Positions 3,420 to 50,341 of a stretch of DNA of 64,000 bases are shown here, piece after piece. The position numbers and the translations under genes were made by a program. The notes under the pieces are model-generated. The model worked only from the letters and a program-made list of their open reading frames with translations. It searched no databases and was not told the DNA's origin. Within the stretch, counting starts at the first letter, position 1. Each line of letters opens with the position of its first letter. The DNA is from an uncultured Pseudomonadales bacterium (lineage in GTDB: Bacteria > Patescibacteriota > Microgenomatia > UBA1400 > PJMF01): the NCBI GenBank assembly GCA_964574595.1, contig CAZNOF010000004.1, positions 17,337 through 81,336 on the forward strand. Direction: 5' to 3'.

Positions 3420-3496
3420 GGGCCTGTAGCTCACTTGGCTAGAGCGCTGCTATGGCATAGCAGAGGTAAGGGGTTCGATTCCCCTCAGGTCCACCA
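3420..3496 (+). tRNA. tRNA-Ala (anticodon GGC), with encoded CCA
   Basis: Cloverleaf: acceptor GGGCCTG/CAGGTCC with a G3:U70 pair (the Ala identity element). Anticodon stem CTGCT/AGCAG with loop ATGGCAT. T-arm AGGGG-TTCGATT-CCCCT. 3' ACCA. Confidence 0.9.
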
Positions 3497-17328: not shown

Positions 17329-19323
17329 TTAAACGTCTAACTCGGCTAATTTAGCATGAGTCTGAATAAATTTCTTGCGTGGTGGAACGTCGTCGCCCAT
17401 TAAGGTTTCAAAGACCTTGTCGGCGCGGTCAACGTCATCAATCGTGACTTGCTTCAACATTCTGGTTTCTGGATTCATGGTTGTCTCCCAGAGTTGCTCT
17501 GGGTTCATTTCTCCAAGACCTTTAAAGCGCTGGATAACTGGTTGTGCATTTGGATTTTTCTTCAAAATTTCATTGACTCGGTCATCTCTTTCTTGATCAG
17601 AGTAGACGTAGGTGTTTTCTTTGCCGTAGGCAATTTTGAACAATGGTGGCATGGCGATGTACAAGTATCCGCGGCGAATCACCTCTGGTAAGTGGCGATA
17701 GAAGAACGTCAAACCAAGCGTGGTAATGTGCTCTCCGTCCACGTCAGCATCGTTCATTAAAATGATTCGGTGATAGCGCATTTTATCTGGTTTGAAAGTT
17801 TCACCAATACCAGCACCTAAGGCCACAACTAAGTTCTTTAACTCTTCGAAAGCAATAATTTTATCAAGACGGGCTCGTTCGGTGTTTAAAATCTTGCCTC
17901 GAAGTGGGTAGACAGCCTGGAATCGACGGTCTCTCCCCTGTTTCACGGTACCACCGGCAGAGTCACCTTCTACGATATAGATTTCTGATTCAGAAGCTTC
18001 TTTACTCTGGCAGTCGGCTAGTTTACCAGGTAAGGTTGAGCCTTCTAAGGCTCCTTTGCGGATGACAGCGTCTTTAGCAGCGCGTGCAGCTAAACGAGCT
18101 CTGGCAGCCAACATGACTTTTTCGACGATTATACGAGCTGCTTTTGGATTCTCCTCGAGGAAAACTTCAAAACCATCTTTAAATACTTGATAAACGGCAG
18201 ATTGAGCTTCACTGTTGTTTAACTTACTCTTGGTCTGAGATTCAAACTGGATGTCATTGGATGGCATCTTGATGAAGACGACGGCGGTTAAACCTTCTCG
18301 TAAGTCTTCAGTGCTGAACAGTTCTTTTTCTTTAGCCAAGCCATTCTTTAAGGTGTAATCCTTCAAAACTTTGTTCAAACCCATTCGGAAACCGGTTAAG
18401 TGTGTTCCACCATCAGGGGTATTGATCACGTTGGCGTAACTTTCGACTTTTTCCACGTAGGAGTCGTTGTATTGCAAAGCCACTTCCACACCAATTTTCT
18501 TGCCGGAAACTTCATCGGTCCAAGTTCCAGAGGTATACACGACTTCGTGGAGAGGTTTTTTGGTCATGTTGATATGCTCAACGAGTGACCTGATACCACC
18601 TTCAAAGTAGAAGTGCTTGGAGAAGTTATGAACGGCGTCAGTGTATTGGAAGTAGAGACCAGCCATTAAGTAGGCACGATCTCGGATGACTTCGGTAATC
18701 ACTTTGGCATTAAACAACGTAGTAGAGAAAATTGATTTGTCTGGTTCAAAATAGACTAATGTACCAGTTTCATACTTGATGAAATCTTTGGTTTGGAGTG
18801 GGAACATTTCCACGACTTTAGCTTCTGGAATTTCTTTGACTTTGGCTTTTGGGGCACCAATTTGGTACTCCTGGAAGTAATACTTTTCGTCGCGCTTCAC
18901 GACGACTTGCATCAAGATTGATAAGGCGTTCACTGCGGCAGCACCTACACCGTGCAGACCACCAGATGCTTGATAGGCGGTTTCTTCAAACTTACCACCG
19001 GCATGTAAAGTCGTTAACACAACTTGCATGGCAGAGACGCCCATTTTTGGATGAATATCAACTGGAATACCACGGCCGTTATCGACCACAGTAATGCCGC
19101 CTTCTTCAGGTGCACCGTCTTTGATTGGAGTGTGATAAAGTTGAATTACCTTGCCGTATCCAGCTAAAGCCTCATCGACAGCGTTGTCCATGATTTCTTT
19201 AACCAAGTGGTGCAAACCACGGCCATCAGTCGAGCCGATGTACATACCCGGTCTTTTTCGGACTGGTTCTAGCCCTTCTAGGACTTTAATTTCGGCTGCT
19301 TTGTATTGGTTGGTAACTGGCAT
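17329..19323 (-). CDS. gyrB: DNA gyrase subunit B
   Basis: GHKL ATPase motifs (GLHHLVKEIMDNAVDEA, GLHGVGAAAVNALS). Toprim motifs EGDSAGG and PLRGKILN. Confidence 0.9.
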   Translation of the reverse strand: MPVTNQYKAAEIKVLEGLEPVRKRPGMYIGSTDGRGLHHLVKEIMDNAVDEALAGYGKVIQLYHTPIKDGAPEEGGITVVDNGRGIPVDIHPKMGVSAMQVVLTTLHAGGKFEETAYQASGGLHGVGAAAVNALSILMQVVVKRDEKYYFQEYQIGAPKAKVKEIPEAKVVEMFPLQTKDFIKYETGTLVYFEPDKSIFSTTLFNAKVITEVIRDRAYLMAGLYFQYTDAVHNFSKHFYFEGGIRSLVEHINMTKKPLHEVVYTSGTWTDEVSGKKIGVEVALQYNDSYVEKVESYANVINTPDGGTHLTGFRMGLNKVLKDYTLKNGLAKEKELFSTEDLREGLTAVVFIKMPSNDIQFESQTKSKLNNSEAQSAVYQVFKDGFEVFLEENPKAARIIVEKVMLAARARLAARAAKDAVIRKGALEGSTLPGKLADCQSKEASESEIYIVEGDSAGGTVKQGRDRRFQAVYPLRGKILNTERARLDKIIAFEELKNLVVALGAGIGETFKPDKMRYHRIILMNDADVDGEHITTLGLTFFYRHLPEVIRRGYLYIAMPPLFKIAYGKENTYVYSDQERDDRVNEILKKNPNAQPVIQRFKGLGEMNPEQLWETTMNPETRMLKQVTIDDVDRADKVFETLMGDDVPPRKKFIQTHAKLAELDV

Positions 19324-37242: not shown

Positions 37243-40158
37243 CTAGTTCGTCTCTTGCCATAAGTATAATGGTTTCGTCATTTTCTCTGGCACGGTTACG
37301 AGGAAGTCGGGTCTGAAAGTGAACGTTTCAATTGCCTGGGTATTCCCTTTCAAGACGTTGGCGTTATTGAAAGTTCTTTGCAGTTGTACTCCACCCCATC
37401 CTACGAACGTACCTTGTCCGATAAACTTCAACTCATCTGCAGGCGCATTACTTTCAGTAATAATTGAGCCATTGGCAATGTAGACACCGGCTACACTTGG
37501 AGCACTTGAAGTGTTAGATCCGAGAGACTTATCAAAGATAATATTGCCTTTGACGATGAAAGCTAAGAAAGCACCTTGAGCAACTTGAATTGGTTGAGTA
37601 ATTCGTAAATCACCATTTACGAAAACCACGATTGAGTCGGTGGTATTCAGTGTCCAAGTAGTATTAATCGTAACGTTTCCATTGGCATAGTAACCGTGAG
37701 TTAAGCTAGACGCTGGCTGAGCCCCAGTAAAGTCTGGAGTGGTGCCTGTGCCAATACCATAGAGTTGACTAAAGTAGTTGTAATCTTCTCTTGGACCATT
37801 CAACTTCATCCCCTCAGCATGGGTGTTCGTTGCGCCTTCGTTGAGGTATGAATATGATGTCGTAACATCAGCCGTAGAATCAATTGCTCCACCAGCCGAT
37901 AAACTTGTACTATCACTATTAGCTGTGCCAGCTAAATCCTTCATGGAAATTGCCGCTACACAAGTTGCTGCATTGGCACAGGTCAGCGGAATCTGGGAGG
38001 TTATTGCAGGTCCTGCTGCGGCACCAGAATAGACGTAGCCGTTGGCCGTTTGCCACCAACCTGCCGGAGCTTGGGTTAGGAAAAAGTTAATGTTGCCAGC
38101 AGGAACTGAAATTCCAGAGTATGAACAGCCTGCCGGACAAGTACATCTATATCCTGCTGGGGCGGTTAAACTCAGAATGGAGTTTTGGTCATAGTTAAGA
38201 TTCGAGAAGGAATACGCAGTTCCGGAAACGGTTTTTGTCGTTGGTGTGCCATTAATTGTGGCAGTCATGGTAGTTGAAGGTAAGTTTAATAGTGGTTCGG
38301 CGGTGCTACAGATGCCGGTGTCATCCTGGAAGAAAGTGCCACTAAATCCTCCACCTAATGTAAAGGTGATTGGAGTAGTCCAAGGGCTATATAACGTTGA
38401 TCCACAGCTGGTGTTGATGGCCCTGACGCGCCAGTTGTAACTGGTCACTCCAGCATCGGCAGTGAAGGTGTAGTTGTTTGAAGCGGCTGGAGCTGGACAG
38501 TGATGATTGGCCACTGTGCATTCCTGACCGGCGGCTGTGCCAGTTGGAAAGACTTGGACTTCATATAGATCCGCTTTAGCAACTGGACTCCAACCTAAGG
38601 TGATTTGACCATTGGTTGGGACGACGGCATATCCATTCGGTGGATTCAAGCCAGTTGGAGTCGTTGGGGTTCCGGCATCGATATTTGAACAAGTACCACT
38701 ACAGCCGTCACTTTGACCACAAGCTGATGTACAGCTTGGCGTACAAGATGGTGGACAAGATCCACAGTCGTGCGGACAGCTGCCACAGTTCTCACCATTA
38801 TTACAAGAGTTATCACCACAGTAAGGTCCTGAAGGAGGGGTACAAACACCACAGTCGCCAGCACAACTTGAACAAGTCTCTCCACCGGCACAAACTCCGT
38901 TTCCACAACACGGAACTGCCGGACATGTAACCGTGTCAACTTGTCCGCAACTACTTGTTCTTGTTTTGGTTCCGGCTACGCCACAAGTATTAGCGTTGGT
39001 ACATGCTGAGTATGCTGGCCAAGTACAGGTTGGTGCGCTACATACTCCAATTCCACATCCGCAGCCAATGACTGCACAGGTTGACCCAGATTGGACGCAG
39101 GCTTCATCTGGTGACGATACTTGGCAAGTTTGTGGAGTATATCCCCCGCATGTACCTTTTCCTGCTCCACATGTACCTGTGCAGTAATCACCTGCACCAG
39201 TTGTTGTTGAAACAGTGATACACGTTCCATCATATGGTCCACATGCAACAGAAGTACAATCTTTACCGCTGATTGAGCATGTTTTTGAAGTTGTAGTGAC
39301 TCCAGTACAGTATCCATATCCACCAACAAGAACACCACAACGAGCACCTGAACATGCCGCATATGCTTGAGGAACTATTAAATTCTTTAAAGAAAGCAAT
39401 GAATTAAAAAATGCTTGCGTAGTTGGCGTAGTTATTTTAAAGATAGGAGCACTGACGTTTTTAGTCTTTTCCGCATAAACATTTGTGGCACTAGGGAATG
39501 TGGGTATTTCTTTATCATAGAAATTATAAAAAAAGCTTTTCAGAAAAGATGATGTGAGATACTCAGATGGAGTTAGGCCAAATTGGGTTGCTATTTCTGG
39601 ATCAATATAAACAGATATCTCAAATGTATCACCATTGGCAACACCACCGAAAAATGCGTTAGCAATTTTTCCCTTTACAACTTCGTTCATCAGACTATGC
39701 AGTGGAAATTTTTGAGTACTTGAATAATCGGCTGGCAATAACGATGCCGGTAAAAATGTGACTCTGATTCTTTTATAATCAGCTTTCCGCACTTTACTTT
39801 GCATGGCACCATTTTTGGCAACTGAATACTCTATAAATTCTTTATTGGCTAAAGGATTCAGACCTAAATCTTGAAGGTAACTAATTAATTGTTTTTGATC
39901 AACTTTATTATCTGCAATTTGATATTCAGGAATTTTACTAATTGCTTCAAATACCGTTTGATCAACAACTACAGCTGCCTGCCCATTTACATCAGGATTT
40001 CCGGTTAGTTTGTTTAAGCCAGGAACATTATCTTGTAGCGAAATAATTGCTGGAGATTGTGGTAAGTTATGAGATAACGCCAAGAATCTTAATGCAAAGA
40101 TGCCAACTAATCCCAAGAACAGGATAAAACTCAAGGCAATTATGACTCTTTTTTTCAC
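37243..40158 (-). CDS. large (971 aa) Cys-rich cell-surface protein with an N-terminal signal anchor
   Basis: N-terminus MKKRVIIALSFILFLGLVGIFAL. Central region with dozens of CxxC/CG repeats (CGDNSCNNGENCGSCPHDCGSCPPSCTPSC...). Ig/FN3-like segments. Confidence 0.55.
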   Translation of the reverse strand: MKKRVIIALSFILFLGLVGIFALRFLALSHNLPQSPAIISLQDNVPGLNKLTGNPDVNGQAAVVVDQTVFEAISKIPEYQIADNKVDQKQLISYLQDLGLNPLANKEFIEYSVAKNGAMQSKVRKADYKRIRVTFLPASLLPADYSSTQKFPLHSLMNEVVKGKIANAFFGGVANGDTFEISVYIDPEIATQFGLTPSEYLTSSFLKSFFYNFYDKEIPTFPSATNVYAEKTKNVSAPIFKITTPTTQAFFNSLLSLKNLIVPQAYAACSGARCGVLVGGYGYCTGVTTTSKTCSISGKDCTSVACGPYDGTCITVSTTTGAGDYCTGTCGAGKGTCGGYTPQTCQVSSPDEACVQSGSTCAVIGCGCGIGVCSAPTCTWPAYSACTNANTCGVAGTKTRTSSCGQVDTVTCPAVPCCGNGVCAGGETCSSCAGDCGVCTPPSGPYCGDNSCNNGENCGSCPHDCGSCPPSCTPSCTSACGQSDGCSGTCSNIDAGTPTTPTGLNPPNGYAVVPTNGQITLGWSPVAKADLYEVQVFPTGTAAGQECTVANHHCPAPAASNNYTFTADAGVTSYNWRVRAINTSCGSTLYSPWTTPITFTLGGGFSGTFFQDDTGICSTAEPLLNLPSTTMTATINGTPTTKTVSGTAYSFSNLNYDQNSILSLTAPAGYRCTCPAGCSYSGISVPAGNINFFLTQAPAGWWQTANGYVYSGAAAGPAITSQIPLTCANAATCVAAISMKDLAGTANSDSTSLSAGGAIDSTADVTTSYSYLNEGATNTHAEGMKLNGPREDYNYFSQLYGIGTGTTPDFTGAQPASSLTHGYYANGNVTINTTWTLNTTDSIVVFVNGDLRITQPIQVAQGAFLAFIVKGNIIFDKSLGSNTSSAPSVAGVYIANGSIITESNAPADELKFIGQGTFVGWGGVQLQRTFNNANVLKGNTQAIETFTFRPDFLVTVPEKMTKPLYLWQETN

Positions 40159-40221: not shown

Positions 40222-42474
40222 TTATTTTGCAGCTGGCTCAGGCGCGATAATGTCTAGAAAATCAAAGTCGACATTCGGATCCTTAGAGTTCAATCCCTTA
40301 ACAACAGAATAGATTTGTTTGTCAGGAGAAACTTGAGCAGCTGAGTTAGGCATCGTCTCTAATTTTAATGCTGCCAAAATAGCAGTACTTATAAACTGTC
40401 CATAACGAGTTTCAAATGGAATTACTTTTCCGACACTATCAGTATTATTTGACCAGCCATTTTCAATAAATCGGGATGATGCAAAGATTACGACCTCATC
40501 TTCACCGTTTGGTCCTTTGCCATAAGCAAATTCCATGACAGGTACGCCTGCTCCGATGAGCAATGTTTGCCCTGTTCGAACAGTGAGTCCCATTTCTTCT
40601 GCTTTTTTCTTCATCTCCACACCAGATTTAGACATAACAATTTTGATATCTTTGATGGAGTTAGCAGGCATATTCTTGAGGTCTAATCCAACGTCTTTTA
40701 ATGCATCATTGATAGAACCGGTGACTTGTAGATCTGTGGCGCCTTCCATTCCAATCACACTAATGCGGAAGGTATGGTTGGCTCCATTTTCATCAGTTAA
40801 TAACGTTTCAAGTCCGGTCGTAGCACCAATCACGGATAGTTCTTCTGGACTCAAGGCTCTTTGGTTAGTGTATTGCTGGACTTCTAGTTTGAAATCGACC
40901 GGGGTTTCCGTCAAAGTAAGTTCTGGGAAAGCGGTGTTAGGTACATCTGTTGGGACTGCTGTTGCTGGCGCTGCTTGAGCACCTTCCAGAGGTTTTCCTA
41001 CTGGTGCTACAGACACGATCATGTCCTTAGCTGGGTTGCCAACTTCAGGTTGAGCAATGGTCGCGATAATTCTTTTTTGTGGATCTAGTAGTTCATCAAT
41101 TGTAACAACAACAGAGTCGGTTAAAGCTAACGTTTTTTGACCAGGTTTAATGAGTCCAGCAGTTTGTTCAGCACTTACTAAATCAATTGCTGCGATTGGG
41201 GCAATGAAATCGCCTTCCTTGGCAACTGGGAAAAGTCTTTGAGACCCATCGTCCAGATGCATAACGAGAGAATTAGGTTTCATGTTAGTGGTAGTTTCTT
41301 GACCATTATTAGTTGAAATTAGATTCACTTCTTGAACAATCTTAATGGCAATTGTGAATTGATCAGCAGCATAGTAGACAGCAACCCTAGAGACTGTATC
41401 TCCAGCCCTTGTGTTAAGGTCTTTAACATATGCTTTTGCATCTGCCATTTGTTTATCAAAATCAGGTCCATAACTGCCAAAGTCTGCATTGTCATTTAAT
41501 ACGATTTCATAGTAATCACTTCCGTAGGCTCTAGCTTTTGATCCAGGCAGGGCGTCTTGAGCGTGCGTCAGAAACTGATCTATTACCGGGCGACGATCTG
41601 ACCCAACGAGTCCACCTTTTGGTAAATCAAACAACGTAAAGTTGGCAGGTAAAAATGTCTCTGAACTTTGTAAATTTGGAGACAATTCACTAGATTTACT
41701 TGTAGAATCAACAATTTTCCCATCATCTGCTGGAGAGATAGGTCTACCACCACCATCGATACCTTTATTGGCGGGAGAAATACCTTTGTCTGCCAATTTT
41801 GCTTGAATCAGGTTTAAAGAGGCAAGAATATTTCGATCAATGGAGTTTGTAAGAACTCTAACTTCTTCTTGTGATTGGTCGTTCATTGTTTGCGTTTGAG
41901 TAACATCAGGAAGCTTGTTATCTGCTCCTGCTACGGCGTCCACTGCCCCACCGAGGAATGCAGCAGTCATGACTACGCCAATTGCTTTCCAAACACTTGG
42001 GAAACGAGGAGGTCGTTGTGCTTCTTTAAGTGAGTCAAAAGCGGTTTGACCATTCAAATGTAACAGCATATCTAGTCCGGCAATGGTATTTTCCAATTTT
42101 CTTTGCAAATTGCGGATCATGATGAAAACCGATGACTTTAACTCTGCTTCACCTGGTTGGCGGAGCAAGGTTGTCTTGGATTCTAAGAAACCCATTAAGA
42201 AGTCATAAACACCATTTACTTTTTTCTGAGTTGAAATGAGTTCTGATAAGACACTTTTAATCTCGTCTGGGGTGTCTAGTCTAAGGTCTGAGTCTACGGG
42301 GACTTCAGTTTCTGATAAAGCAGATTTAATGACGTTCAATACGCCTGGAACAGTAGCAGTTTCCTGTCCTTTATTATTTATGATTTTCTCTACATCATTC
42401 CCATAAAACTCAACACCAGATTGTTTATCTGTTTGCATATATCTCGATCTTCTTGGTTCGTATTCTTTTAACAT
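40222..42474 (-). CDS. hypothetical bitopic membrane protein (750 aa), first gene of the minus-strand pilus-associated operon
   Basis: Single TM helix (WKAIGVVMTAAFLGGAVDAV) about 160 aa from the N-terminus. Large C-terminal extracytoplasmic region. Confidence 0.5.
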   Translation of the reverse strand: MLKEYEPRRSRYMQTDKQSGVEFYGNDVEKIINNKGQETATVPGVLNVIKSALSETEVPVDSDLRLDTPDEIKSVLSELISTQKKVNGVYDFLMGFLESKTTLLRQPGEAELKSSVFIMIRNLQRKLENTIAGLDMLLHLNGQTAFDSLKEAQRPPRFPSVWKAIGVVMTAAFLGGAVDAVAGADNKLPDVTQTQTMNDQSQEEVRVLTNSIDRNILASLNLIQAKLADKGISPANKGIDGGGRPISPADDGKIVDSTSKSSELSPNLQSSETFLPANFTLFDLPKGGLVGSDRRPVIDQFLTHAQDALPGSKARAYGSDYYEIVLNDNADFGSYGPDFDKQMADAKAYVKDLNTRAGDTVSRVAVYYAADQFTIAIKIVQEVNLISTNNGQETTTNMKPNSLVMHLDDGSQRLFPVAKEGDFIAPIAAIDLVSAEQTAGLIKPGQKTLALTDSVVVTIDELLDPQKRIIATIAQPEVGNPAKDMIVSVAPVGKPLEGAQAAPATAVPTDVPNTAFPELTLTETPVDFKLEVQQYTNQRALSPEELSVIGATTGLETLLTDENGANHTFRISVIGMEGATDLQVTGSINDALKDVGLDLKNMPANSIKDIKIVMSKSGVEMKKKAEEMGLTVRTGQTLLIGAGVPVMEFAYGKGPNGEDEVVIFASSRFIENGWSNNTDSVGKVIPFETRYGQFISTAILAALKLETMPNSAAQVSPDKQIYSVVKGLNSKDPNVDFDFLDIIAPEPAAK

Positions 42475-42737
42475 AATTACTCTACTCTCTGTTGTTCTAC
42501 TTGGTCAATCGATGTTTGAGCATAAAGCTCATCCGTTTAAATATTATTCTAGGCCTTTGAATTGCGAAAAAATTATTTTCCGCCAAGACATAGTATATTG
42601 ACTTGATGTAATTATACCTCTGGGCTTATAATTTTACATACATAGCCGTTACACACGATTTTCAGCAGTTATTGCTTGGTATGCAGGTCAAAAAGATCTG
42701 GAATACATATCTACTATGTGTAAAAAACTATCAAAAG

Positions 42738-42790
42738 TGTTATAATTTCCTCTTGAGTAACGATCTGGTTAAATTCAGATCTCGTTTTTT
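42738..42790 (+). promoter_or_regulatory. extended -10 promoter (TGtTATAAT) followed by the inverted repeat GATCTG-n8-CAGATC
   Basis: TGTTATAAT at 42738..42746. IR at 42762..42781. A second GATCTGG lies at 42695. Upstream of the methyltransferase gene in a 340-bp AT-rich spacer. Confidence 0.35.
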
Positions 42791-42813
42791 ATTATGGGTT
42801 TAATTTAAATCAC

Positions 42814-43872
42814 ATGGCACTGCACGAAACGCTTCGACGATCTGATATGGCATACCAAAATGGCAAACGAGCCACTGGAGAAGTTGCTGCGGCTAAAGAG
42901 GTGACTTACAGGTATCTGGATGAATCTTGGGATGTAACCAGTGCTCAAAAAGCTACAACAATTAAGTCATATGATTCTGCAGCGAATCTATATCAGGAGC
43001 AAAATGGTGGACTTGAAATAATAAAGGTGATGTGGGAAAAAGTTTTCAAAGATTACAAAGAAACAATAATCCAACTTCCAGAAAGAGCAAAAATATTTCT
43101 TCCGGGTATTGGTACATCAAGGGACGCTTTTTTTCCAACTTTGCTTAGGCCGGGCATAAAAGTAGTTGGCTCTGATCTTTCTCCTGGGATGTTAGCTGTT
43201 GGTCAATCCAAAATTGAGCAGCTAACCTGGACTGATATAAAAGAAATTGGTGATTTTATCCGTGAGCTTGATCCTATGGGCGGTCGATGGATGATCAACA
43301 GGTTAATTGATTCACTCCAGGATAATGCGGATATTCTTTCATATGAGAAGGGATCTGAGGGTTCCGCAAGTGAAAGAATTGACATTCAAAAGCTTTTTAA
43401 GATGGAGGAGGTAGTGAAAAGCTTAGTGAAAAGAATTTTCTTGTTGCAGGAAGATCTAAGACACCTTTCGTATGCTGACAATACTTTTGATATGGTGATG
43501 GCGATTGCTGTATATCCCCATTTGTCAAAGAGAGACGTTCTTCCAGCAGTTTTAGAATCTTTAAGGGTTTTAAAACCTGGCCAGATTTTCTATTTCGACC
43601 TAAGAGCTGATCTTGCAAATTGGTATAGTAAGCCTAAAGGTCGAACTTTTGAAGACAATGTCTTGAACGGAGGAAGTCGTTTTTTCAGCACTTATACCTT
43701 ATCCGAAGTTCTAGAACTCATTACTGAACTAAAAAGAATAATTCCTCCAATTGAGGTTACATTTGATAACCACTTTTCTCCTCACTTTGACACTCATAAG
43801 CCTCCCTTCTTGCAATTTCAAATTAGAAAAGCAAAAGAAGTTACTCGTCCTTCTCTTAAGAATGCGCCTTGA
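42814..43872 (+). CDS. class I SAM-dependent methyltransferase
   Basis: Motif I-like FLPGIGTS. Acidic post-I VVGSDL. Motif II NTFDMVMA. Motif III LKPGQIFYF. Confidence 0.6.
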   Translation: MALHETLRRSDMAYQNGKRATGEVAAAKEVTYRYLDESWDVTSAQKATTIKSYDSAANLYQEQNGGLEIIKVMWEKVFKDYKETIIQLPERAKIFLPGIGTSRDAFFPTLLRPGIKVVGSDLSPGMLAVGQSKIEQLTWTDIKEIGDFIRELDPMGGRWMINRLIDSLQDNADILSYEKGSEGSASERIDIQKLFKMEEVVKSLVKRIFLLQEDLRHLSYADNTFDMVMAIAVYPHLSKRDVLPAVLESLRVLKPGQIFYFDLRADLANWYSKPKGRTFEDNVLNGGSRFFSTYTLSEVLELITELKRIIPPIEVTFDNHFSPHFDTHKPPFLQFQIRKAKEVTRPSLKNAP

Positions 43873-43942
43873 GATAAACCATGACTATTCAAAAAATATT
43901 CATTTGGTACAATACACCAAATTAAATTAGAGGCTATAGTTT

Positions 43943-44521
43943 ATGAAAATCTATTTCAGTGCAGCTATCTACGCGAAAGAGAAATACGACAAGTACTATC
44001 TTCAGATTGCGAAAACACTGGAGAGTTTGGGTCATGCTGTTCAGCATGAACATATCACCGGGGCAGTAAGTCTTGACGACATAAAGAGTGATACTCAGGA
44101 ACAAACCGACGCCTATTACAAAAAATTTCTCCGCTGGATGAATGCCGCTGATATCGTCGTTTTCGAAGCTTCTTTCCCATCAAGTTTAAACATTGGTCAT
44201 GAAATCACTTTAGCTTTAGACAAAGGCAAGCCAGTAGTTGTCTTCTACAAAAAAGGATTTGATTCCATTTTCTTAAACGGTTTGCATTCCGATAAACTCT
44301 TCTTAGTTGAATACACTGATGAAAACTTAGTTGAAACTGTCAAAGACAGTATCGATTATGCCAAGGATCAATCAGACACTCGATTTAACTTTTTCTTGCC
44401 ACCATCCTTAATGTCTTACATGGACTGGATTTCTGAGAAACGAAAAGTTCCTCGATCCGTTTATTTGCGAGAATTAATTGAGCGAGACCGCGAACGAAAT
44501 CGCGAGTACAACGAAGCGTAA
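43943..44521 (+). CDS. nucleoside 2-deoxyribosyltransferase-like (Rossmann/flavodoxin-like) domain fused to a C-terminal ribbon-helix-helix-like motif
   Basis: KIYFSAAIY....ADIVVFEASFPSSLNIGHEITLALDKGKPVVVF parallels the NDT/DNPH1 family, with the Glu of GHE at the catalytic position. Tail RFNFFLPPSLMSYMDWISEKRKVPRSVYLRELIERD resembles RHH/CopG. Confidence 0.45.
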   Translation: MKIYFSAAIYAKEKYDKYYLQIAKTLESLGHAVQHEHITGAVSLDDIKSDTQEQTDAYYKKFLRWMNAADIVVFEASFPSSLNIGHEITLALDKGKPVVVFYKKGFDSIFLNGLHSDKLFLVEYTDENLVETVKDSIDYAKDQSDTRFNFFLPPSLMSYMDWISEKRKVPRSVYLRELIERDRERNREYNEA

Positions 44522-44741
44522 ACTCCTTTCAGTTCTAAATTTTTAACCTATTTCAATAACTATGAGTAGCATTTTGCTGCTTTTTTTTGTGACTTTTATG
44601 ACTTATCTTGCATACGTAATAATTGAGTAATTTAGATTTTTATATCTATTTATCAATCTAAAGCATGTATGTAATTTAGTATTGACAACTCGGCAACCTT
44701 CCTCTAAATTCTACTATTACTAGATTAGAAAAAGGAAAATT

Positions 44742-45254
44742 ATGTCAGAAGTTGTTCGTACTCGCGAAAGATTTAAACTATCTTCGTCAGTTTTTTTATT
44801 ATTTTTACAGGGTAATGAAATTCTTTTTTTATTGAGATCAAATACTGGTTGGTTAGATGACCATTACAGTCCTCCAGGAGGTGTCAAAGAACCAGGTGAA
44901 ACACTCCCTGCAGCTGCAATCCGAGAAGCCACAGAAGAAGTTGGGTTAACGGTTTTGCCAGAAAATCTTATGTTGGCTCATGTCATGCATAACTTTACTA
45001 GTGGCCAAGAATGGATTGCCGCTTTTTTCATTACAGAAAAATGGAGTGGTACCCCAGGGATAAAAGAACCACATAAACATTCGGATCTTAAATGGGTGCA
45101 TATTGAAAATTTGCCCGAAAATACATCACCTTATGTAAGACAGGCCATTGAAGCATATCTTGAAGAGATGCCTTATTCAGAATTCGGTTGGAATATTCCT
45201 GCTGACTCAAAAGATGAGGAATATGATCATAGACATGTGCCAAGAAAGAAGTGA
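44742..45254 (+). CDS. NUDIX hydrolase
   Basis: Nudix box GGVKEPGETLPAAAIREATEEVGL (Gx5Ex7REUxEExGU). TTGACA-17-TAAATT promoter-like sequence upstream. Confidence 0.8.
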   Translation: MSEVVRTRERFKLSSSVFLLFLQGNEILFLLRSNTGWLDDHYSPPGGVKEPGETLPAAAIREATEEVGLTVLPENLMLAHVMHNFTSGQEWIAAFFITEKWSGTPGIKEPHKHSDLKWVHIENLPENTSPYVRQAIEAYLEEMPYSEFGWNIPADSKDEEYDHRHVPRKK

Positions 45255-45303
45255 GCTATCTGCCCCTATTTACTCCACACCTCGCCTTTGCTAAGCTTAT
45301 CTC

Positions 45304-46242
45304 ATGTGGAATTTCTCGGATCGAACAGTTCAAGTCAGAACAGCAATTATCACGTTGGTGGGAATTCTAGCTGTCTTTGGGGTGATTTTTGTAATTTTGT
45401 TAAATAAATCTGGGATTACAAACACTGACAGTGGATCCGGAAGTGGCACTCAAACAGCTGAAAAGTCTAGGCCAGAAACGGTCGATGTATCACCATTTAT
45501 TCCTGTTAACACTATCTCCCCAATGATCAAGCCATGTCTGTTTGTTTTACTGAATTCTTGTGCTGAAACAGTAGGTGCCTCAATTGCTGTCGATCCTAAC
45601 CCAGTAGTGGATCCCACTAAAAATACAGGTGATGAGCAAAAGGCAGTTGATGATGTTTACGCAACAATTCATATGGGCTCGAATCCGGGGTTAGCGAGTT
45701 ACTCGGCGCCGATCGATAAAAATATGGTGGCTGCCTACTTTCCAGAATACAAACAGACGGCAAGCACCAGTGCATTGACAGTACCTTCAGGTATTGTGGT
45801 TGGGCGTGTAGCGGCAAAATTTGATATTAATCAACGTGTCCTACTAGGATTAATGGCAGTGGTAAATCGCGGCGGTGGTCCTCTCTTCTCTTCCTCAAAT
45901 GACTACACCACACCTTATTTCGCCAAAGATCCAGGATTCTTAAAACAATTAGTCGCAGTGGCCACAGATCTAGAGGCTACTAAAACAAAATATGTACTCA
46001 TGCAGTCAGACCAAAAGAAATTGCCTACTGCCGTGACCTTCTTTGGAAAGCAGTACACGGTTGATCCCAAGACAAATGCCGAGTCCTTAGCCATTGCCGA
46101 CTTTTTAAGCAGAAACATCTCAGATAAAAAGGATTTTGAGCGCGCAATATACTTCCCACAATCTCCAGATACATCTGGAATTCCAATTTCTCAGAACTTC
46201 ATTTTGTTGTATCAAACCATGTATAAGATCAATCCATATTGA
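45304..46242 (+). CDS. hypothetical membrane-anchored extracytoplasmic protein
   Basis: N-terminal TM helix followed by a GSGSGT linker. Preceded by the conserved TTTGCTAAGCTTATC pre-ATG motif. Confidence 0.5.
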   Translation: MWNFSDRTVQVRTAIITLVGILAVFGVIFVILLNKSGITNTDSGSGSGTQTAEKSRPETVDVSPFIPVNTISPMIKPCLFVLLNSCAETVGASIAVDPNPVVDPTKNTGDEQKAVDDVYATIHMGSNPGLASYSAPIDKNMVAAYFPEYKQTASTSALTVPSGIVVGRVAAKFDINQRVLLGLMAVVNRGGGPLFSSSNDYTTPYFAKDPGFLKQLVAVATDLEATKTKYVLMQSDQKKLPTAVTFFGKQYTVDPKTNAESLAIADFLSRNISDKKDFERAIYFPQSPDTSGIPISQNFILLYQTMYKINPY

Positions 46243-46285
46243 TCTTTACAGTCACTGAAAGCTTGATACAATCAGAAAAATACTG

Positions 46286-47050
46286 TTGAGCTACATTATG
46301 GTTCTTGAAGAACGCTTTGAGCAAACAAATACCTTCGACATCCCTTTCTCAAAAGAACGACATCCTTCCTATTTTCAAATTGCTATCGATGGTCCGATGG
46401 GCGCTGGTAAAACGGCAGTCTCAGAAATGGTCGCTAAAGAGCTGGGTTTGCTGTTTATTAGCACAGGACAACTCTATCGGTCGCTGACACTCTTAGCCTT
46501 ACGAGAAAATGTCTCGCTTGATGATGAACAAGGGCTGTTGCAACTTCTGCAATCACACAACATTGTGCTTAAGCCCGCCTCCCACACAGATGGGAACGAG
46601 AAAGCGTGCGTCTACATTGATGATGAAGACGTGACCGAGTATCTGCACGATAACGTAATTAGTCAAAAGACGCCCCAAGCAGCACGGCACAAGTTAGTTC
46701 GTGCCGAAATTGTTAAAAAGCAGCAAGCCTTTATTGATTCAGGTTCCGTGATCATGGAAGGGCGTGATATTACCCACACAGTTTTGCCGCAGGCGCAATT
46801 AAAGATTTATCTAGATGCTGCTCCGGAAGCTCGCGCATATCGCAGATGGTTGGATGTAGTAGTAAAAAATCCCAAGATCACACTGGAAGATGTATTGGCA
46901 GATCTTTATGCGCGTGATGCTCAAGATTCCAAAGAAAACCTCCGGAAAGTGCCCGGCGTGTGGATCATTGATACTACAGACATGCCAATTGAAGATGTCG
47001 TGAATGTCATTTGTGACAGAGTCCGAGCGATGATGGGCAAGCTCATCTAA
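46286..47050 (+). CDS. cmk: cytidylate kinase (N-terminal extension of about 30 aa relative to typical CMK)
   Basis: IAIDGPMGAGKTAV P-loop followed by STGQLYRSLT (compare DTGAMYR). LID arginines. About 220-aa core. Confidence 0.75.
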   Translation: MSYIMVLEERFEQTNTFDIPFSKERHPSYFQIAIDGPMGAGKTAVSEMVAKELGLLFISTGQLYRSLTLLALRENVSLDDEQGLLQLLQSHNIVLKPASHTDGNEKACVYIDDEDVTEYLHDNVISQKTPQAARHKLVRAEIVKKQQAFIDSGSVIMEGRDITHTVLPQAQLKIYLDAAPEARAYRRWLDVVVKNPKITLEDVLADLYARDAQDSKENLRKVPGVWIIDTTDMPIEDVVNVICDRVRAMMGKLI

Positions 47051-47094: not shown

Positions 47095-47910
47095 ATGGAA
47101 AATGTTTTTCCGAAGCGTCGTGCTACTCAATCAGGCCAAATTGGTATTATTGTCGTGCTAATTATGGTGGTCTTGCTGACAATTGGTTTGTCTTTAGCAA
47201 GTCGAACCACCAAAGAAGTTGCGTTATCTACTCAAGAAGAAGAATCTACCCGTGTCTTTAATGCGGCTGAAGTTGGTGTGGAGCAAGCGCTCTCTTCTAA
47301 TCTCGCTTTTGCTGGTGATGTGTACACTTCAAATCCAATTACTCCAGCTGGTTCCAACTCTACTGTGACGTACACCATTAATAAGCAGTACCAACTCCAA
47401 ATGCAGATTTTTCAAGGTGTGAGTGCCATGATTCAGCTAACTGATGCAACGCATCCGACGCCACCTTCATCACTTTATACGGATTGGTCAATCGAAAATA
47501 GCTGTGCAACGCAAACTCCGGCAGCATTGTTAGTCTCGATTTACTCAGTTGATAACACTACATTACCACCTTCTGTAAAAGTCAGATATCAAACGTTTGA
47601 TCCTTGTTCTAGAGGAAATAACTTCAACACGGCTGGGATTGCTGCTGGTCAAAATGGCTACTTTAAGCGAGCAACTATTTCCTTACAGCCAAGTGATAGT
47701 TTTGTTCGAATAAAGCCAATTTATAACGACACCAAAATGTTAGTTCAACCAAGTTCAGGTCAGATGCCAGTTCAGTCTTATGCCATTCGTTCTACGGGAA
47801 ACAACAACGGCGGTACGGAAAACCGGAACGTCCAGGTTGTGAGAAGTTTACCCTCAGCTCCGTCCATCTTTGATTATGTCTTATTCAGTGGAAGTACTAT
47901 CGTTAAGTAG
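47095..47910 (+). CDS. PilX_N-like type IV pilus minor assembly protein
   Basis: N-terminus QSGQIGIIVVLIMVVLLTIGLSLASRTTKEVALSTQEEESTRVFNAAEVGVEQAL resembles the PilX N-terminal domain. Sits immediately upstream of pilMNO. Preceded by the conserved pre-ATG motif. Confidence 0.5.
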   Translation: MENVFPKRRATQSGQIGIIVVLIMVVLLTIGLSLASRTTKEVALSTQEEESTRVFNAAEVGVEQALSSNLAFAGDVYTSNPITPAGSNSTVTYTINKQYQLQMQIFQGVSAMIQLTDATHPTPPSSLYTDWSIENSCATQTPAALLVSIYSVDNTTLPPSVKVRYQTFDPCSRGNNFNTAGIAAGQNGYFKRATISLQPSDSFVRIKPIYNDTKMLVQPSSGQMPVQSYAIRSTGNNNGGTENRNVQVVRSLPSAPSIFDYVLFSGSTIVK

Positions 47911-47933
47911 TGGAGTTAAAGGAAGGCCTGCCT

Positions 47934-48950
47934 ATGCCACAATTATCTGTCGCAATTGATTTGGGAAGTTATGCAGTTAAAGCGTTACAAGTCAGACAAG
48001 GAAAAAAACTTGTTATTGAGCGTGCAATTGAAGTGCCCAACTCTGTTGGTGTCAGCAGTCCAACAGATGATGTAACAGCCGACAAACTCGTTCAACTTAT
48101 TACCAATATCTTTACTGACCATAAACTCAGTAAGGCTGATGTTCGATTAGCTCTTCCAGAAGCTCTCGTTTCCACCAAGATTATCTCCATTCCAGTCTTA
48201 ACTGATGCTGAGCTAGCTTCTGCAATCAACTGGCAGGCTGAGCAGCATATTCCTATTCCACTTGATGAGTTATCTCTCGAGTACCAAGTCCTCTATCGAC
48301 CAGATAAAAAGAATCAAAATGAACAAATGCGGGTCTTAATGGTGGGTACTCGAAAAGTCTTAATTGAAAAATATTTAAATGTTTTCCTAAGAGCTGGCAT
48401 TGAACCAAGTATTCTGGAAACCCAAACGATCGCTTTAATTCGAGCCATGCAGTTTACCGCTGAAGATGCGCCTACGCTCGTCGTGAACATGGGTGCGGTT
48501 TCCACTGATTTAGCAATTGTGTATCAAGGTGAGTTGCGATTTGTTTACACCTTTAACAGTGGTGGCCAAGTTCTCACCAGAACAACTGAACAAGCTGTGC
48601 AGCTCGATGCCAAACAGGCTGAAGAGTACAAACGCACTTACGGGTTAGATGGTTCTCAATTGGCTGGCAAAATGCGCGATATTCTATTGCCACCAGTCAA
48701 GACAAGTATTTTAGAGATGCAAAAAGCACTTCAGTTCTTCGCGTCTCAAAACACCTTGGATCCTGTCAAAAGAGTCTTATTGGCAGGCGGCGGCTCTCAA
48801 TTACCTGGTCTATCCCAATTTATTGCTGAGCAGCTGAACTGTGAGGTGCTGATGGCTGCCCCATTTACCAATGTAGAAGGTGAAATTCCGGCTGCAAACC
48901 AGCTTGCCTATGGAGTGGCAATGGGATTGATCTTGAAACCGTTAAAATAA
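47934..48950 (+). CDS. pilM: type IV pilus assembly protein PilM (actin-like ATPase fold)
   Basis: Start moved to the ATG with AAGGAAGG Shine-Dalgarno 7 nt upstream. N-terminus MPQLSVAIDLGSYAVKALQV. About 340 aa. Confidence 0.75.
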   Translation: MPQLSVAIDLGSYAVKALQVRQGKKLVIERAIEVPNSVGVSSPTDDVTADKLVQLITNIFTDHKLSKADVRLALPEALVSTKIISIPVLTDAELASAINWQAEQHIPIPLDELSLEYQVLYRPDKKNQNEQMRVLMVGTRKVLIEKYLNVFLRAGIEPSILETQTIALIRAMQFTAEDAPTLVVNMGAVSTDLAIVYQGELRFVYTFNSGGQVLTRTTEQAVQLDAKQAEEYKRTYGLDGSQLAGKMRDILLPPVKTSILEMQKALQFFASQNTLDPVKRVLLAGGGSQLPGLSQFIAEQLNCEVLMAAPFTNVEGEIPAANQLAYGVAMGLILKPLK

Positions 48951-48953
48951 GCT

Positions 48954-49508
48954 ATGTCACGAGAAATTAACTTTCTATCTGATCGACACAAAGAGATCGT
49001 CAAACAAGAACTTGCTGATCGTCGAATCATGACGCTTTGCTCGATTGGTTTAGGAATTTGTTTTGCGATATTTGTGGCATTTTCGGCTATTCAACTCTTC
49101 TTCTCGTATCAGTTGAATAAAACCAAAGTTGAAGAAGCCTCGTTAAGACAACAGATTGTTGGTGATCAGGAGACCGAACGAACTTTTGTGATTTTTGTTC
49201 ATAAATTGAGCAGCTTAGTGCAAATTGATCAAGATCGACAAGATAAAAAAGTGATTATTCAGTTCTTTAACACCTATTTTGGTGGTTCGATTTCGATTGT
49301 GGGTGTGGAGTTTAATCAATCTCAAAAATTACTGACCTTAAAATTAGAATCTGACTCAGTTTTCACTTTAAAGAATGTTTTAACTAAACTGAATGACCCG
49401 GAAGTACTATCTAAGTTCTCTTCTGTCAGTCCGAGCAACTTAACTAGAACACCAGATGGCAAATATCAAATAGATGTCACAGTTTCGACTGTAGCTCCGA
49501 AAATATGA
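48954..49508 (+). CDS. pilN: PilN-like bitopic pilus alignment protein
   Basis: Single N-terminal TM helix (IMTLCSIGLGICFAIFVAF) then periplasmic domain. Position after pilM. Confidence 0.55.
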   Translation: MSREINFLSDRHKEIVKQELADRRIMTLCSIGLGICFAIFVAFSAIQLFFSYQLNKTKVEEASLRQQIVGDQETERTFVIFVHKLSSLVQIDQDRQDKKVIIQFFNTYFGGSISIVGVEFNQSQKLLTLKLESDSVFTLKNVLTKLNDPEVLSKFSSVSPSNLTRTPDGKYQIDVTVSTVAPKI

Positions 49509-50341
49509 AATTAGACTTTAAAAAAGAAAACATTCAAGCATTTTTGTTCAGTCGTAGGTACGTCTTGTTTGCTGGCTTGATGGTAATAATTGGTTTAGGC
49601 ATTGTGATTTTGGGTGTTTTCGCTCAAATTAGCGGCTTGATCGATCTGGTCAACGCGAATAACACAGCTCATGAAACCACTGTTCAGCTGCAAAAGAAGG
49701 CCAAGTCTCTTCAAGAAGTAAACTACTTAGAGGAATTTTCTAAGAGTAGCCAAGTTGACCTTGCCTTGCCATCTGAAAAGCCACTTCTTCAACTTATTAC
49801 CGGGGTAAATAGTGTTGCCCAACAAGCTGGCGTGAGTATTTCCGATGTCACCACTTCCCCCGGAAAATTGGCCACCCAGAGTGCAGTCTTGAATTTAAAT
49901 GGGACGGTGAGTAGCCCTACTTCCTCTGGTTTGGATGACACCAAGTCTACGGTCAATGGCGTCAACATTTTAACCATTGGCATGAAAGCTCGTGGTTCAC
50001 TTGCTCAAATTAACTCTTTCTTAGACTTAATTGAGAAGATTACGCCAATTACCCAAGCTACTAGATTGAAACTCGCCATAGATACAAATCAGGCTGCTCC
50101 AAAAGTTGCTTCTGGCTCTGCAGCTCCAGTCACAGGCAGCCAATATGAAGCTGAGCTAGAACTCAGTACCTATTACTTCTCACAACCAATTTCAGTGACG
50201 ATTGATACTCCGTTACCAAGTATTGGCGTCAAAGAAGAAGCATTCTTGAAGAGTTTGGATACGTTCCAATTCCCAGATTATCAGAAACAGCAACAAATCC
50301 AGGGTGGCGGATCAACAGACCTATTTGGCACCAGTCAATAA
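49505..50341 (+). CDS. pilO: PilO-like bitopic pilus alignment protein
   Basis: Start overlaps the pilN stop (ATGA). TM helix YVLFAGLMVIIGLGIVILGVF then coiled-coil segment. Confidence 0.5.
   Translation: MKLDFKKENIQAFLFSRRYVLFAGLMVIIGLGIVILGVFAQISGLIDLVNANNTAHETTVQLQKKAKSLQEVNYLEEFSKSSQVDLALPSEKPLLQLITGVNSVAQQAGVSISDVTTSPGKLATQSAVLNLNGTVSSPTSSGLDDTKSTVNGVNILTIGMKARGSLAQINSFLDLIEKITPITQATRLKLAIDTNQAAPKVASGSAAPVTGSQYEAELELSTYYFSQPISVTIDTPLPSIGVKEEAFLKSLDTFQFPDYQKQQQIQGGGSTDLFGTSQ

Follow-up and report, generated by a model that had tools for sequence, protein, structure and literature searches.

We analysed a window of 64,000 nucleotides (the whole stretch of DNA under study, positions 17,337 to 81,336 of contig CAZNOF010000004.1, labelled as an uncultured Pseudomonadales bacterium) and focused on three open reading frames (ORFs) that lie on its forward strand between 42475 and 45254. 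ORF calls and Pfam identified a class I S-adenosylmethionine (SAM) methyltransferase gene (42814-43872, +, 352 aa) and a Nudix gene (44742-45254, +, 170 aa), and the ORF between them (43943-44521, +, 192 aa) encodes a protein that we call c0, together with its family. A previous inspection of the letters alone (the sequence-only reading) had grouped these genes as one set, and all three ORFs and the sequence features that it listed were found at the positions it named. Its AT-rich spacers, 42475-42813 (339 bp) and 44522-44741 (220 bp), have GC fractions of ~0.33 and ~0.31 compared with ~0.40 in coding DNA. The extended -10 and GATCTG inverted repeat that it placed ahead of the methyltransferase gene read at 42738-42746 and 42762-81, and its promoter before the Nudix gene reads as TTGACA-17-TAAATT at 44682-44710. 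Its domain calls were confirmed by Pfam for the methyltransferase (Methyltransf_11 at 8e-12, scoring 46 bits where the cut-off is 21.2, in a match interrupted by an insertion in the fold; Methyltransf_25 also matched) and the Nudix protein (PF00293, 61.5 bits against a cut-off of 21.1, 1e-16). The grouping itself did not survive comparison with related genomes: the locus is one instance of a widespread two-gene design in Patescibacteria, here with an optional Nudix cassette.

Seven related contigs were retrieved by exact-protein look-ups (L080, its near-duplicate L081, L082, L083/84, L085, L086 and L087). All seven have the order methyltransferase, c0, an optional protein of ~310 aa, an optional cmk, pilX and pilM. 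The trio occurs only in the window and L087, and the Nudix gene is missing at the site in the other six (L080, L081, L082, L083, L085 and L086); on this synteny, a conserved three-gene methyltransferase-c0-Nudix operon was rejected. Of the conserved neighbourhood that had been suggested, therefore, the methyltransferase-c0 pair stood in 7/7 relatives, while the Nudix gene turned out to be optional. Identities to the window were 74-88% for c0, 78-89% for PilM and 67-84% for PilX, but only 23-42% for the methyltransferase. At the DNA level, the window aligned with L080 upstream (42431-42747) and again from 43885, with nothing across the methyltransferase ORF. No further relative of the methyltransferase was found at E<=1e-5 in a large protein index, and tblastn of the 6 kb around 79 c0 family loci detected its family in only four. 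The seven methyltransferases are collinear and retain the motifs for SAM binding (GxGT, acidic GSD and LKPGG-like, all invariant or near-invariant) as well as the C-terminal ones, from which they appear to be functional and either fast-evolving or repeatedly replaced. As judged from these alignments, the methyltransferase-c0 pair is a real, conserved module.

To characterize c0, profile searches, hhalign, AlphaFold2 (AF2) and Foldseek were combined, and they identified residues 1-144 (43943-44374, +) as a DNPH1/Rcl-like nucleoside 5'-monophosphate N-glycosidase domain. Pfam Nuc_deoxyrib_tr (PF05014) matched residues 3-104 at 26.1 bits, below its cut-off of 28.8, which some c0 relatives pass. 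The closest solved structures by sequence were rat and human DNPH1/Rcl, at 4e-7 in phmmer with the single sequence and at 2e-17 for the family profile against PDB, with an hhalign probability of 98.9% and an identity of ~17-23%. True nucleoside 2-deoxyribosyltransferase (NDT) structures matched far more weakly than DNPH1 both by sequence and in Foldseek, and MilB and BcmB were marginal by sequence (profile E = 0.2-0.3). In an AF2 model made from 115 family members (pLDDT 83), residues 1-144 fold into a Rossmann-like domain, for which Foldseek ranked DNPH1 first (E = 3e-7; target-normalised TM 0.79-0.83), followed by MilB and BcmB (E 1e-5 to 1e-4), then NDTs and weaker TIR/ThsB proteins.

The DNPH1 mechanism relies on a catalytic triad of Y24, D80 and E104, of which human E104 is the nucleophile; E55 and H56 contribute from a helical element, serines hold the phosphate, and 5-hydroxymethyl-deoxyuridine monophosphate (hmdUMP) is the natural substrate (PMC10603095). 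In phmmer and profile alignments, Y4, E36-H37, S80 and E87 of c0 align with rat Y13, E44-H45, S87 and E93, which bears out the DNPH1-like fold with a retained catalytic Glu proposed in the sequence-only reading. Across the 115 family sequences, E75, S77, S80 and G85 are invariant, E87 and Y4 are each >=90% conserved, and an E/D-H pair is common, not universal. Without the general-acid Asp, the c0 domain is, on these alignments, DNPH1-like but not a canonical member. It almost certainly binds a nucleoside 5'-monophosphate, and cleavage of the N-glycosidic bond of a (deoxy)nucleoside 5'-monophosphate ((d)NMP) is probable, not assured.

The remaining residues of c0, 145-192 (44375-44521, +), form a ribbon-helix-helix (RHH)-like tail with a DTRFNFF strand and helices at 154-167 and 171-185, as indicated by Pfam, a PDB profile search and AF2. 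RHH_3 (cut-off 21.6 bits) matched residues 146-180 of full-length c0 at 18.2 bits and the isolated tail at 21.5 bits; it matched 10/23 diverse family tails (best E = 2.8e-5), and HicB_lk_antitox matched 2/23 weakly. The top PDB match of the tail profile was the CopG-family regulator 7by2 (E = 0.1) in the expected register, and the AF2 monomer model, with an extended 145-153 ahead of the two helices, has strand-helix-helix topology; polar and hydrophobic residues alternate along the strand. The tail is among the best conserved parts of c0 (D-T-R-F-N-F-F-x-P…Y-L-D-W…P-R-S-V-Y-L-R-x-L-I), with R147, D161 and R176 invariant, and it is kept in essentially all orthologues and paralogues, in agreement with what had been read from the letters. 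In rare relatives from an exhaustive profile search, the RHH tail is absent and another segment of ~90 residues stands at the N-terminus, at the C-terminus or between two DNPH1-like domains. The segment carries …TLQxLSxxL…DPSLLSHWQRGARLPKDR… in the tail-less variants P0121, P0209, P0211, P0249 and P0251, and in P0121 it is flanked by two DNPH1-like domains. Its top Pfam match was the XRE-type helix-turn-helix (HTH) family HTH_31 in 3/4 cases (E ~0.01-0.03), with no PDB match by sequence. Exchange of one small DNA-binding domain for another would point to a DNA-binding protein, but the XRE-HTH assignment is suggestive only. Taken together, the c0 tail is likely, not proven, to be an RHH DNA-binding domain.

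Promoter-like and terminator-like sites across 42000-46500 showed no excess over shuffled sequence, so such sites mean little alone and their significance rests on conservation in relatives. The spacer between the methyltransferase gene and c0 is divergent across six genomes save for a near-invariant block, TTTGGTACAATACACCAAATTAAAT (43903-43927), which is followed by a GAGG ribosome-binding site ahead of c0. Within it, TTTGGTACAATACACCAAA (43903-43921, +) contains an extended -10, TGGTACAAT (43905-43913), inside a 6-bp inverted repeat and is a candidate c0 promoter and operator. The conserved extended -10 block and ribosome-binding site argue for a separate promoter of c0, at which the inverted repeat is a candidate operator for autoregulation. 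A TTGGT-N5-9-ACCAA element was also considered as a family operator and rejected (15/295 loose matches near c0, about chance level), and unbiased enrichment of 6- to 8-mers near c0 returned -10-like words only.

The c0 family is large. A word-indexed search returned 262 clusters, and among the 120 clusters listed nearly all proteins are ~190 aa and match almost the full query length. An exhaustive profile search of 1.84 billion representatives yielded 2292 matches at E<=1e-3, 1190 at E<=1e-10 and 270 at E<=1e-30. The named sources are Patescibacteria (Microgenomates group, Shapiro-, Collier-, Woese-, Beckwith- and Amesbacteria and one member of Paceibacterota). Many metagenome-assembled genomes have titles that name other taxa, such as 'uncultured Pseudomonadales'; these are probably placeholders or wrong assignments, given that the genes around c0 and the similarities look patescibacterial. 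Exact look-ups of the window's own protein gave no entry. The family is Patescibacteria-specific so far, and our literature search found no paper describing a DNPH1-like/RHH fusion or its gene partners. A phage origin of c0 was also considered and rejected, with no relatives in 2.9 million IMG/VR viral contigs.

To learn which genes accompany c0, ORFs were called in 79 c0 loci from one-genome-per-species contigs, and their 1041 neighbours were clustered without reference to the window. The family has 117 members in 80 loci, often as several paralogues, up to six in L031. An annotated enzyme, which we call X, lies directly before c0 on the same strand for 58/117 copies: methyltransferases in 25 cases (>=4 unrelated clusters), P-loop kinases of two kinds in 16, viperin-like radical SAM proteins in 10, PfkB kinases in five and NudC-like Nudix proteins in two. 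Singletons in this slot include a thymidine kinase (above the Pfam cut-off), more methyltransferases and a weak phosphoribosyltransferase (PRTase)-like protein, and the partners c84, c101 and c106 matched nothing in Pfam, NCBIfam, PADLOC or PDB. A further c0 copy lies directly upstream in 19/117 cases. The X-c0 gap has an estimated median of ~12 bp (range -46 to 132, mostly -20 to +40 bp). Within the loci, 13/14 MT10, 12/12 PL18 and 10/11 viperin-like genes lie immediately upstream of c0. The viperin-like partner matched PADLOC pVip (7e-56) and NCBIfam viperin_w_prok (1.2e-51; 175.6 bits against a cut-off of 180), both over its full length; it precedes ~9% of c0 copies, and a PfkB kinase often lies upstream of it.

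The occupant of the slot changes while its surroundings stay. Between recR and c0-c17-c13-cysS we found PfkB, c84, a P-loop kinase, a methyltransferase, c106 or nothing; before pilX-pilM, MT35, MT10, c101, c106 or nothing; beside murF/HAD, a P-loop kinase, a methyltransferase or Nudix; and beside c28/M29/MAP, viperin, a methyltransferase or nothing. Paralogues of c0 within one locus are old, with 23-50% identity (mean 33%), and the nearest match of each is a copy from another genome that has the same type of partner. Subfamilies of c0 thus follow the partner type even inside a single genome. For example, the same-partner identity is 60% for the PfkB-linked copy of L009, 64% for the PfkB-linked copy of L016 and 75% for the PL18-linked copy of L060, compared with 30-50% to their own siblings. 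This partner tracking speaks for X-c0 pairs that are passed on and work as units, with a c0 pocket that may be tuned to its partner.

Several additional arrangements were observed around c0. Arrays of four to six paralogues occur in L031 (2284-7130), L056 (5069-7388) and L075 (377-5049); these are partly head-to-tail with 1-4-bp overlaps and no partner enzyme between, and their copies are 23-50% identical. L009 and L051 have the order recR, a more distant Nudix (c58, the cluster that includes the window's Nudix), viperin-like radical SAM gene and c0, and in L009 a PfkB-c0 pair follows the viperin-c0 pair; these genes look like a tight run of nucleotide enzymes. In L025 (4888-4959, tRNA-Cys) and L040 (4875-4949, for which ARAGORN gave an odd four-base anticodon, gtaa), recR is separated from c84-c0 by a tRNA gene. 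tRNA-linked integration was rejected, as a tRNA lies beside the module only in these two c84 loci.

The neighbourhood data bear on whether the genes belong together at all. They could be independent salvage or housekeeping enzymes in a compact genome, with the c0 tail as an oligomerisation element that does not bind DNA. The dispensable Nudix gene, the gene density of patescibacterial genomes, the borderline RHH scores and the lack of a family-wide operator would all suit such a view. It does not explain why >=12 unrelated enzyme families occur exactly at position -1 of c0, why partner type and c0 subfamily co-vary within single genomes, or why the methyltransferase-c0 pair is kept in 7/7 relatives despite the extreme divergence of the methyltransferase, and we regard it as very improbable. 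We give still less credence to a toxin-antitoxin system of reverse order, with X as the toxin and c0 as a HicB-like antitoxin that autoregulates through its C-terminal RHH or HTH. The order X then c0 with tiny gaps, the RHH tail that is HTH-like in some variants and the weak HicB_lk_antitox matches are all reminiscent of one. However, the partners have >=5 unrelated folds (methyltransferase, P-loop, PfkB, radical SAM and Nudix), which one domain could hardly all neutralise by binding, and none is from a known toxin family; in addition, c0 keeps an enzyme-like active site, and many copies have no X (RecR-c0 and c0-c0 arrays). HicB antitoxins resemble c0 in having a globular N-terminal domain, a C-terminal RHH or XRE-HTH and a gene downstream of the partner, but the N-terminal domain of c0 is enzyme-like, and its partners are metabolic-type enzymes of many folds, not HicA.

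Our preferred interpretation, to which we assign an even chance, is that c0 is a (d)NMP N-glycosidase that responds to its substrate, regulates its own gene and is coupled to enzymes for making or modifying nucleotides. Most partners bear an evident relation to such a substrate. Since DNPH1 and RHH domains both function as dimers, c0 would dimerise. Its RHH would bind its own promoter, here the conserved TTTGGTACAATACACCAAA block, and its Rossmann-like pocket would bind, and probably hydrolyse, a (modified) (d)NMP made or used by the neighbouring enzyme. A kinase partner (thymidine kinase, possibly PfkB or P-loop) or a Nudix partner would supply the monophosphate from nucleosides or nucleoside triphosphates (NTPs), whereas the product of a methyltransferase or viperin partner would be a modified nucleotide. 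Repression would be tuned by how far the pocket is occupied, and the DNA-binding tail would couple expression to substrate load. In organisms that live by scavenging, each of several partner-tuned paralogues could take care of its own modified or unwanted nucleotide and set free the base and the sugar phosphate. The Nudix cassette would fit this nucleotide theme (NTP to monophosphate) as an optional, not obligate, addition.

Several points weigh against this interpretation. The general-acid Asp of DNPH1 (rat D69, human D80) aligns to F62 of c0, a position that is hydrophobic family-wide, and D70 of c0 aligns with rat D77, not with the catalytic D69; catalysis is not assured because of this replacement. 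The RHH assignment of the tail is borderline by score, and hhalign of the tail against single CopG and Arc sequences (approximate queries) was not significant. No operator is shared family-wide, though the presumed DNA-contacting R147 and N149 are nearly invariant; the TTTGGTACAATACACCAAA block is clade-specific, and its 6-bp inverted repeat could reflect chance together with promoter and 5'-untranslated region conservation. The matches of the methyltransferase point to no substrate class, and methylation has no evident link to an NMP glycosidase. Finally, patescibacterial genomes are compact, and short intergenic gaps alone are weak operon evidence.

The replaced Asp would be accommodated if c0 were a sensor only, that is, if its DNPH1-like domain, without efficient catalysis, were the nucleotide-sensing part of an RHH factor that controls the adjacent X gene. 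The missing general-acid Asp, the very strongly conserved DNA-binding tail, the swap of RHH for an HTH-like segment in rare relatives and the partner-specific subfamilies all fit. What makes us consider it unlikely is that the nucleophile Glu, Tyr and phosphate Ser are all kept, together with the Glu-His pair in the window's c0 (residue roles from PMC10603095), a set that exceeds the needs of ligand binding. The gene arrangement is also atypical of dedicated regulators: c0 comes after X, in many cases nearly without a spacer, or stands in tandem arrays that lack X.

The sequence-only reading had also mentioned nucleotide-modifying and anti-phage contexts. The first is in line with the changing nucleotide enzymes that are paired with c0, including Nudix and prokaryotic viperin, whereas c0 matches no known defence system: a search of PADLOC-DB 2.0, the kind of check it had proposed, gave c0 no match at all. 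In the same database, the methyltransferase matched only mad2 (1e-5, part of the generic methyltransferase core), and the Nudix protein matched the candidate PDC-S07 (8e-11), which may be generic Nudix similarity.

A role in conflict or defence is conceivable. X would make toxic or antiviral nucleotide derivatives, as viperin does with 3'-deoxy-3',4'-didehydro-NTPs (ddhNTPs), and c0 would be either a self-immunity hydrolase of their monophosphates or a sentinel that derepresses the module on phage-type nucleotides. The pVip-like partner of c0, the slot that is hypervariable in gene family, and the expansion of c0 paralogues, up to six in a row, are as expected for such a role. Furthermore, several methyltransferases and one kinase are hypervariable in sequence (23-42% compared with ~80% for the flanks); besides the methyltransferase of the window's clade, these are the MT10 and MT77 methyltransferases and the PL18 kinase. 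The natural DNPH1 substrate, hmdUMP, would suit it too (PMC10603095), and NDT-like domains are effectors in retron defence (PMC13276650). On the other hand, PfkB, PL53 and MT40 partners diverge at the same pace as the genes on either side, and much of the partner set belongs to ordinary salvage, as do thymidine kinase, PfkB, PRTase-like and haloacid dehalogenase-like HAD proteins. The window's c0 has no PADLOC match, its family is absent from the IMG/VR viral contigs, and c0 lies in conserved housekeeping contexts (dnaX-ybaB-recR, pilM, murF and ribosomal proteins), not in recognisable defence islands. We hold a defence role to be quite unlikely. The same low probability applies to a broader proposal in which c0 is the hub of a Patescibacteria-specific modular nucleotide surveillance, where interchangeable and partly hypervariable X enzymes make antiviral or antagonistic analogues and c0 both senses them, turning the module on, and cleaves their monophosphates to protect the producer.

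Compared with known systems, the c0 design varies known kinds, namely DNPH1-type hydrolases and enzyme-domain/RHH regulators, and is not a categorically new system. DNPH1/Rcl, the dimeric hmdUMP sanitiser, is the closest solved family and shares with c0 the fold and the Tyr, nucleophile Glu, phosphate Ser and Glu-His residues; c0 differs by the hydrophobic residue in place of human D80, by an extra 48-residue RHH-like tail and by its partner-specific paralogues. Its structural neighbours MilB and BcmB are CMP and hydroxymethyl-CMP N-glycosidases (CMP, cytidine monophosphate) of nucleoside-antibiotic and bacimethrin clusters. BcmB shares its cluster with the SAM methyltransferase BcmC and the ribokinase-superfamily kinase BcmD, an arrangement that resembles, by analogy, the methyltransferase-c0 and PfkB-c0 pairs. 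However, MilB and BcmB have no DNA-binding tail and belong to multi-gene biosynthetic clusters, whereas c0 modules have two genes and no hydroxymethylase was seen in them. In pseudouridine catabolism, the PfkB kinase PsuK makes an NMP and PsuG cleaves its glycosidic bond, a pattern that the PfkB-c0, thymidine kinase-c0 and P-loop kinase-c0 pairs may parallel; unlike c0, PsuG has a different fold, cleaves a C-glycoside and lacks a DNA-binding domain. Animal nucleotide-pool sanitation combines an NTP-pyrophosphatase with DNPH1, which would be the same logic as Nudix plus c0.

As a regulator, c0 may be likened to PutA (N-terminal RHH), NikR, NrtR (Nudix and winged HTH), BirA and Bacillus subtilis PurR, in which a small-molecule-binding domain is joined to a DNA-binding domain; c0 would share with them an (ex-)catalytic domain, a DNA-binding domain and metabolite-responsive (auto)regulation. 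It differs from them in its DNPH1/NDT-like sensor fold, its C-terminal RHH, its position downstream of the presumed target and the large number of paralogues in each genome, whose presumed DNA-contact residues are almost the same. Like pVip loci with adjacent nucleotide kinases, c0 loci recurrently contain a full-length pVip match, often with PfkB upstream; in contrast, the window has no viperin, and the c0-associated kinase is of PfkB type, not an NMP kinase. We found no report of a DNPH1-like/RHH neighbour of pVips in the literature searched.

In the window, the Nudix gene lies in a presence/absence cassette of 740 bp (44522-45261, +; an indel relative to L080) that consists of a terminator, a promoter and the gene. 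Window position 44520 corresponds to L080 8578 and 45262 to L080 8579, and the indel begins just behind the c0 stop. Imperfect direct repeats, CTCCTTT and CCCCTATTT, lie at the junctions, and L080 has a single CTCCTATTT. Within the cassette, a terminator-like hairpin with a T-run (44564-44590, +; z = -1.9) follows the c0 stop, and the promoter-like TTGACA-17-TAAATT of the Nudix gene (44682-44710, +), a consensus match, has a homologous TTGACA...TAGATT in the L087 spacer. The Nudix box, GGVKEPGETLPAAAIREATEEVGL, is intact (G46-x5-E52-x7-R60-E61-x2-E64-E65-x-G67), and the closest PDB chains are MutT/Nudix proteins; no NCBIfam equivalog cut-off such as that of MutT was reached. The family is sparse, with 17 relatives at E<=1e-10, and tblastn found no homologue of the window's Nudix within 6 kb in any of the 79 loci. 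L087 carries a cassette at the same site, with a Nudix protein 65% identical and a similar terminator and TTGACA promoter, and by c0, PilM and PilX it is no closer to the window than the cassette-less genomes. A homologous cassette without closer kinship indicates a presence/absence polymorphism, which may have arisen through loss by recombination between the repeats or through gain. On this comparison, Nudix enzymes belong to the gene pool around c0 and are not an obligate component. At the locus of a 64%-identical Nudix relative, P0270, the contig ends within a 165-aa ORF upstream, a possible c0 homologue; a P-loop kinase (AAA_18/AAA_28) follows the Nudix gene, and an M29 peptidase, a Ham1-like inosine triphosphate pyrophosphatase (ITPase), ybaB and dnaX lie on the opposite strand.

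The methyltransferase gene has a leader of its own in the AT-rich divergent intergenic region (42475-42813) between it and the 750-aa protein gene on the minus strand; conserved blocks stand out when this region is aligned, and over 42431-42747 it is ~75% identical to the orthologous L080 spacer. The extended -10 TGtTATAAT (42738-42746, +) has invariant T..AAT columns, with TGnTATAAT in 5/6 relatives. An inverted repeat, ACATA-N5-TATGT (42705-42719, +), lies ~20 bp upstream of it, is kept in 5/6 relatives and shows compensatory changes at 3/5 pairs, which makes it a candidate operator or small hairpin. Between the promoter and the methyltransferase start, a GATCTGG-N6-CAGATC hairpin with a T-run (42762-42790, +; fold energy z = -2.1) looks like a terminator or attenuator, and a hairpin and U-run with different stem sequences occur at the equivalent place in L080, L082, L083 and L085. 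A riboswitch or other structured leader was considered and rejected, with no Rfam match upstream of the gene even at E<=1; RNAalifold predicted nothing larger than a hairpin of 5 bp (consensus energy -1.3 kcal/mol). In addition, a second conserved promoter-like block, TTGACTTGATG...TATAAT (42603-42632), lies ~180 nt upstream of the methyltransferase start, and the conserved ATACATAGCCGTTACACA that follows it (42600-42660 region) resembles ATACATA-N5-TATGTGT at 42703-42721. A protein-binding site that is repeated might account for these two elements, or they might form part of the divergent gene's promoter.

Other genes were noted around the module. Divergent from the methyltransferase gene are those for a 750-aa protein (40222-42474, -) and a 971-aa protein (37243-40158, -), both very large and without family matches. 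The larger one, of 971 aa, starts with a signal-like N-terminus and contains long repeats rich in Cys, Gly and Thr; weak relatives of it lie upstream of c0 modules in L001, L004, L005 and L012; the 750-aa protein has no homologue among the 79 loci. Downstream, between the c0/Nudix region and cmk, a 312-aa protein (45304-46242) matches no Pfam or NCBIfam family and has a membrane-spanning segment near its N-terminus; it evolves fast, being 41-58% identical among genomes in which PilM is ~80-89% identical, and only some relatives have it, L082 and L083 being without it. Immediately downstream, a type IV pilus-like block (47095-50341) encodes a PilX_N-like protein of 271 aa, PilM of 346 aa and ORFs of 184 and 278 aa. 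This block also follows c0 in ~12/79 loci, and c0 is the 5' border of the operon in one lineage. The sole Rfam gathering-level match within the window is a tRNA gene at 3420-3493.

Patescibacteria lack de novo nucleotide synthesis and rely on what they scavenge; to our knowledge, how they sort, recycle and police their nucleotide pools is largely unknown. Here, a family of >1000 sequence clusters, often with several paralogues per genome, is wired to rotating nucleotide enzymes that include a viperin homologue, and the human counterpart of its nucleotide-cleaving domain is a drug target. The size of the family, its unusual fusion, its rotating partners including viperin and the extreme divergence of its methyltransferase make c0 a good experimental target. 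If the surveillance proposal were true, it would reveal a new immunity or self-immunity logic in episymbiotic bacteria, and a true defence role would connect viperin-type chemistry with a sensor, or an enzyme for self-protection, dedicated to it. If c0 is the self-regulating (d)NMP N-glycosidase that we favour, it would offer a directly testable model of metabolite-controlled regulation in organisms with few recognisable regulators, and the X-c0 modules would be natural enzyme pairs for reading new (modified-)nucleotide specificities.

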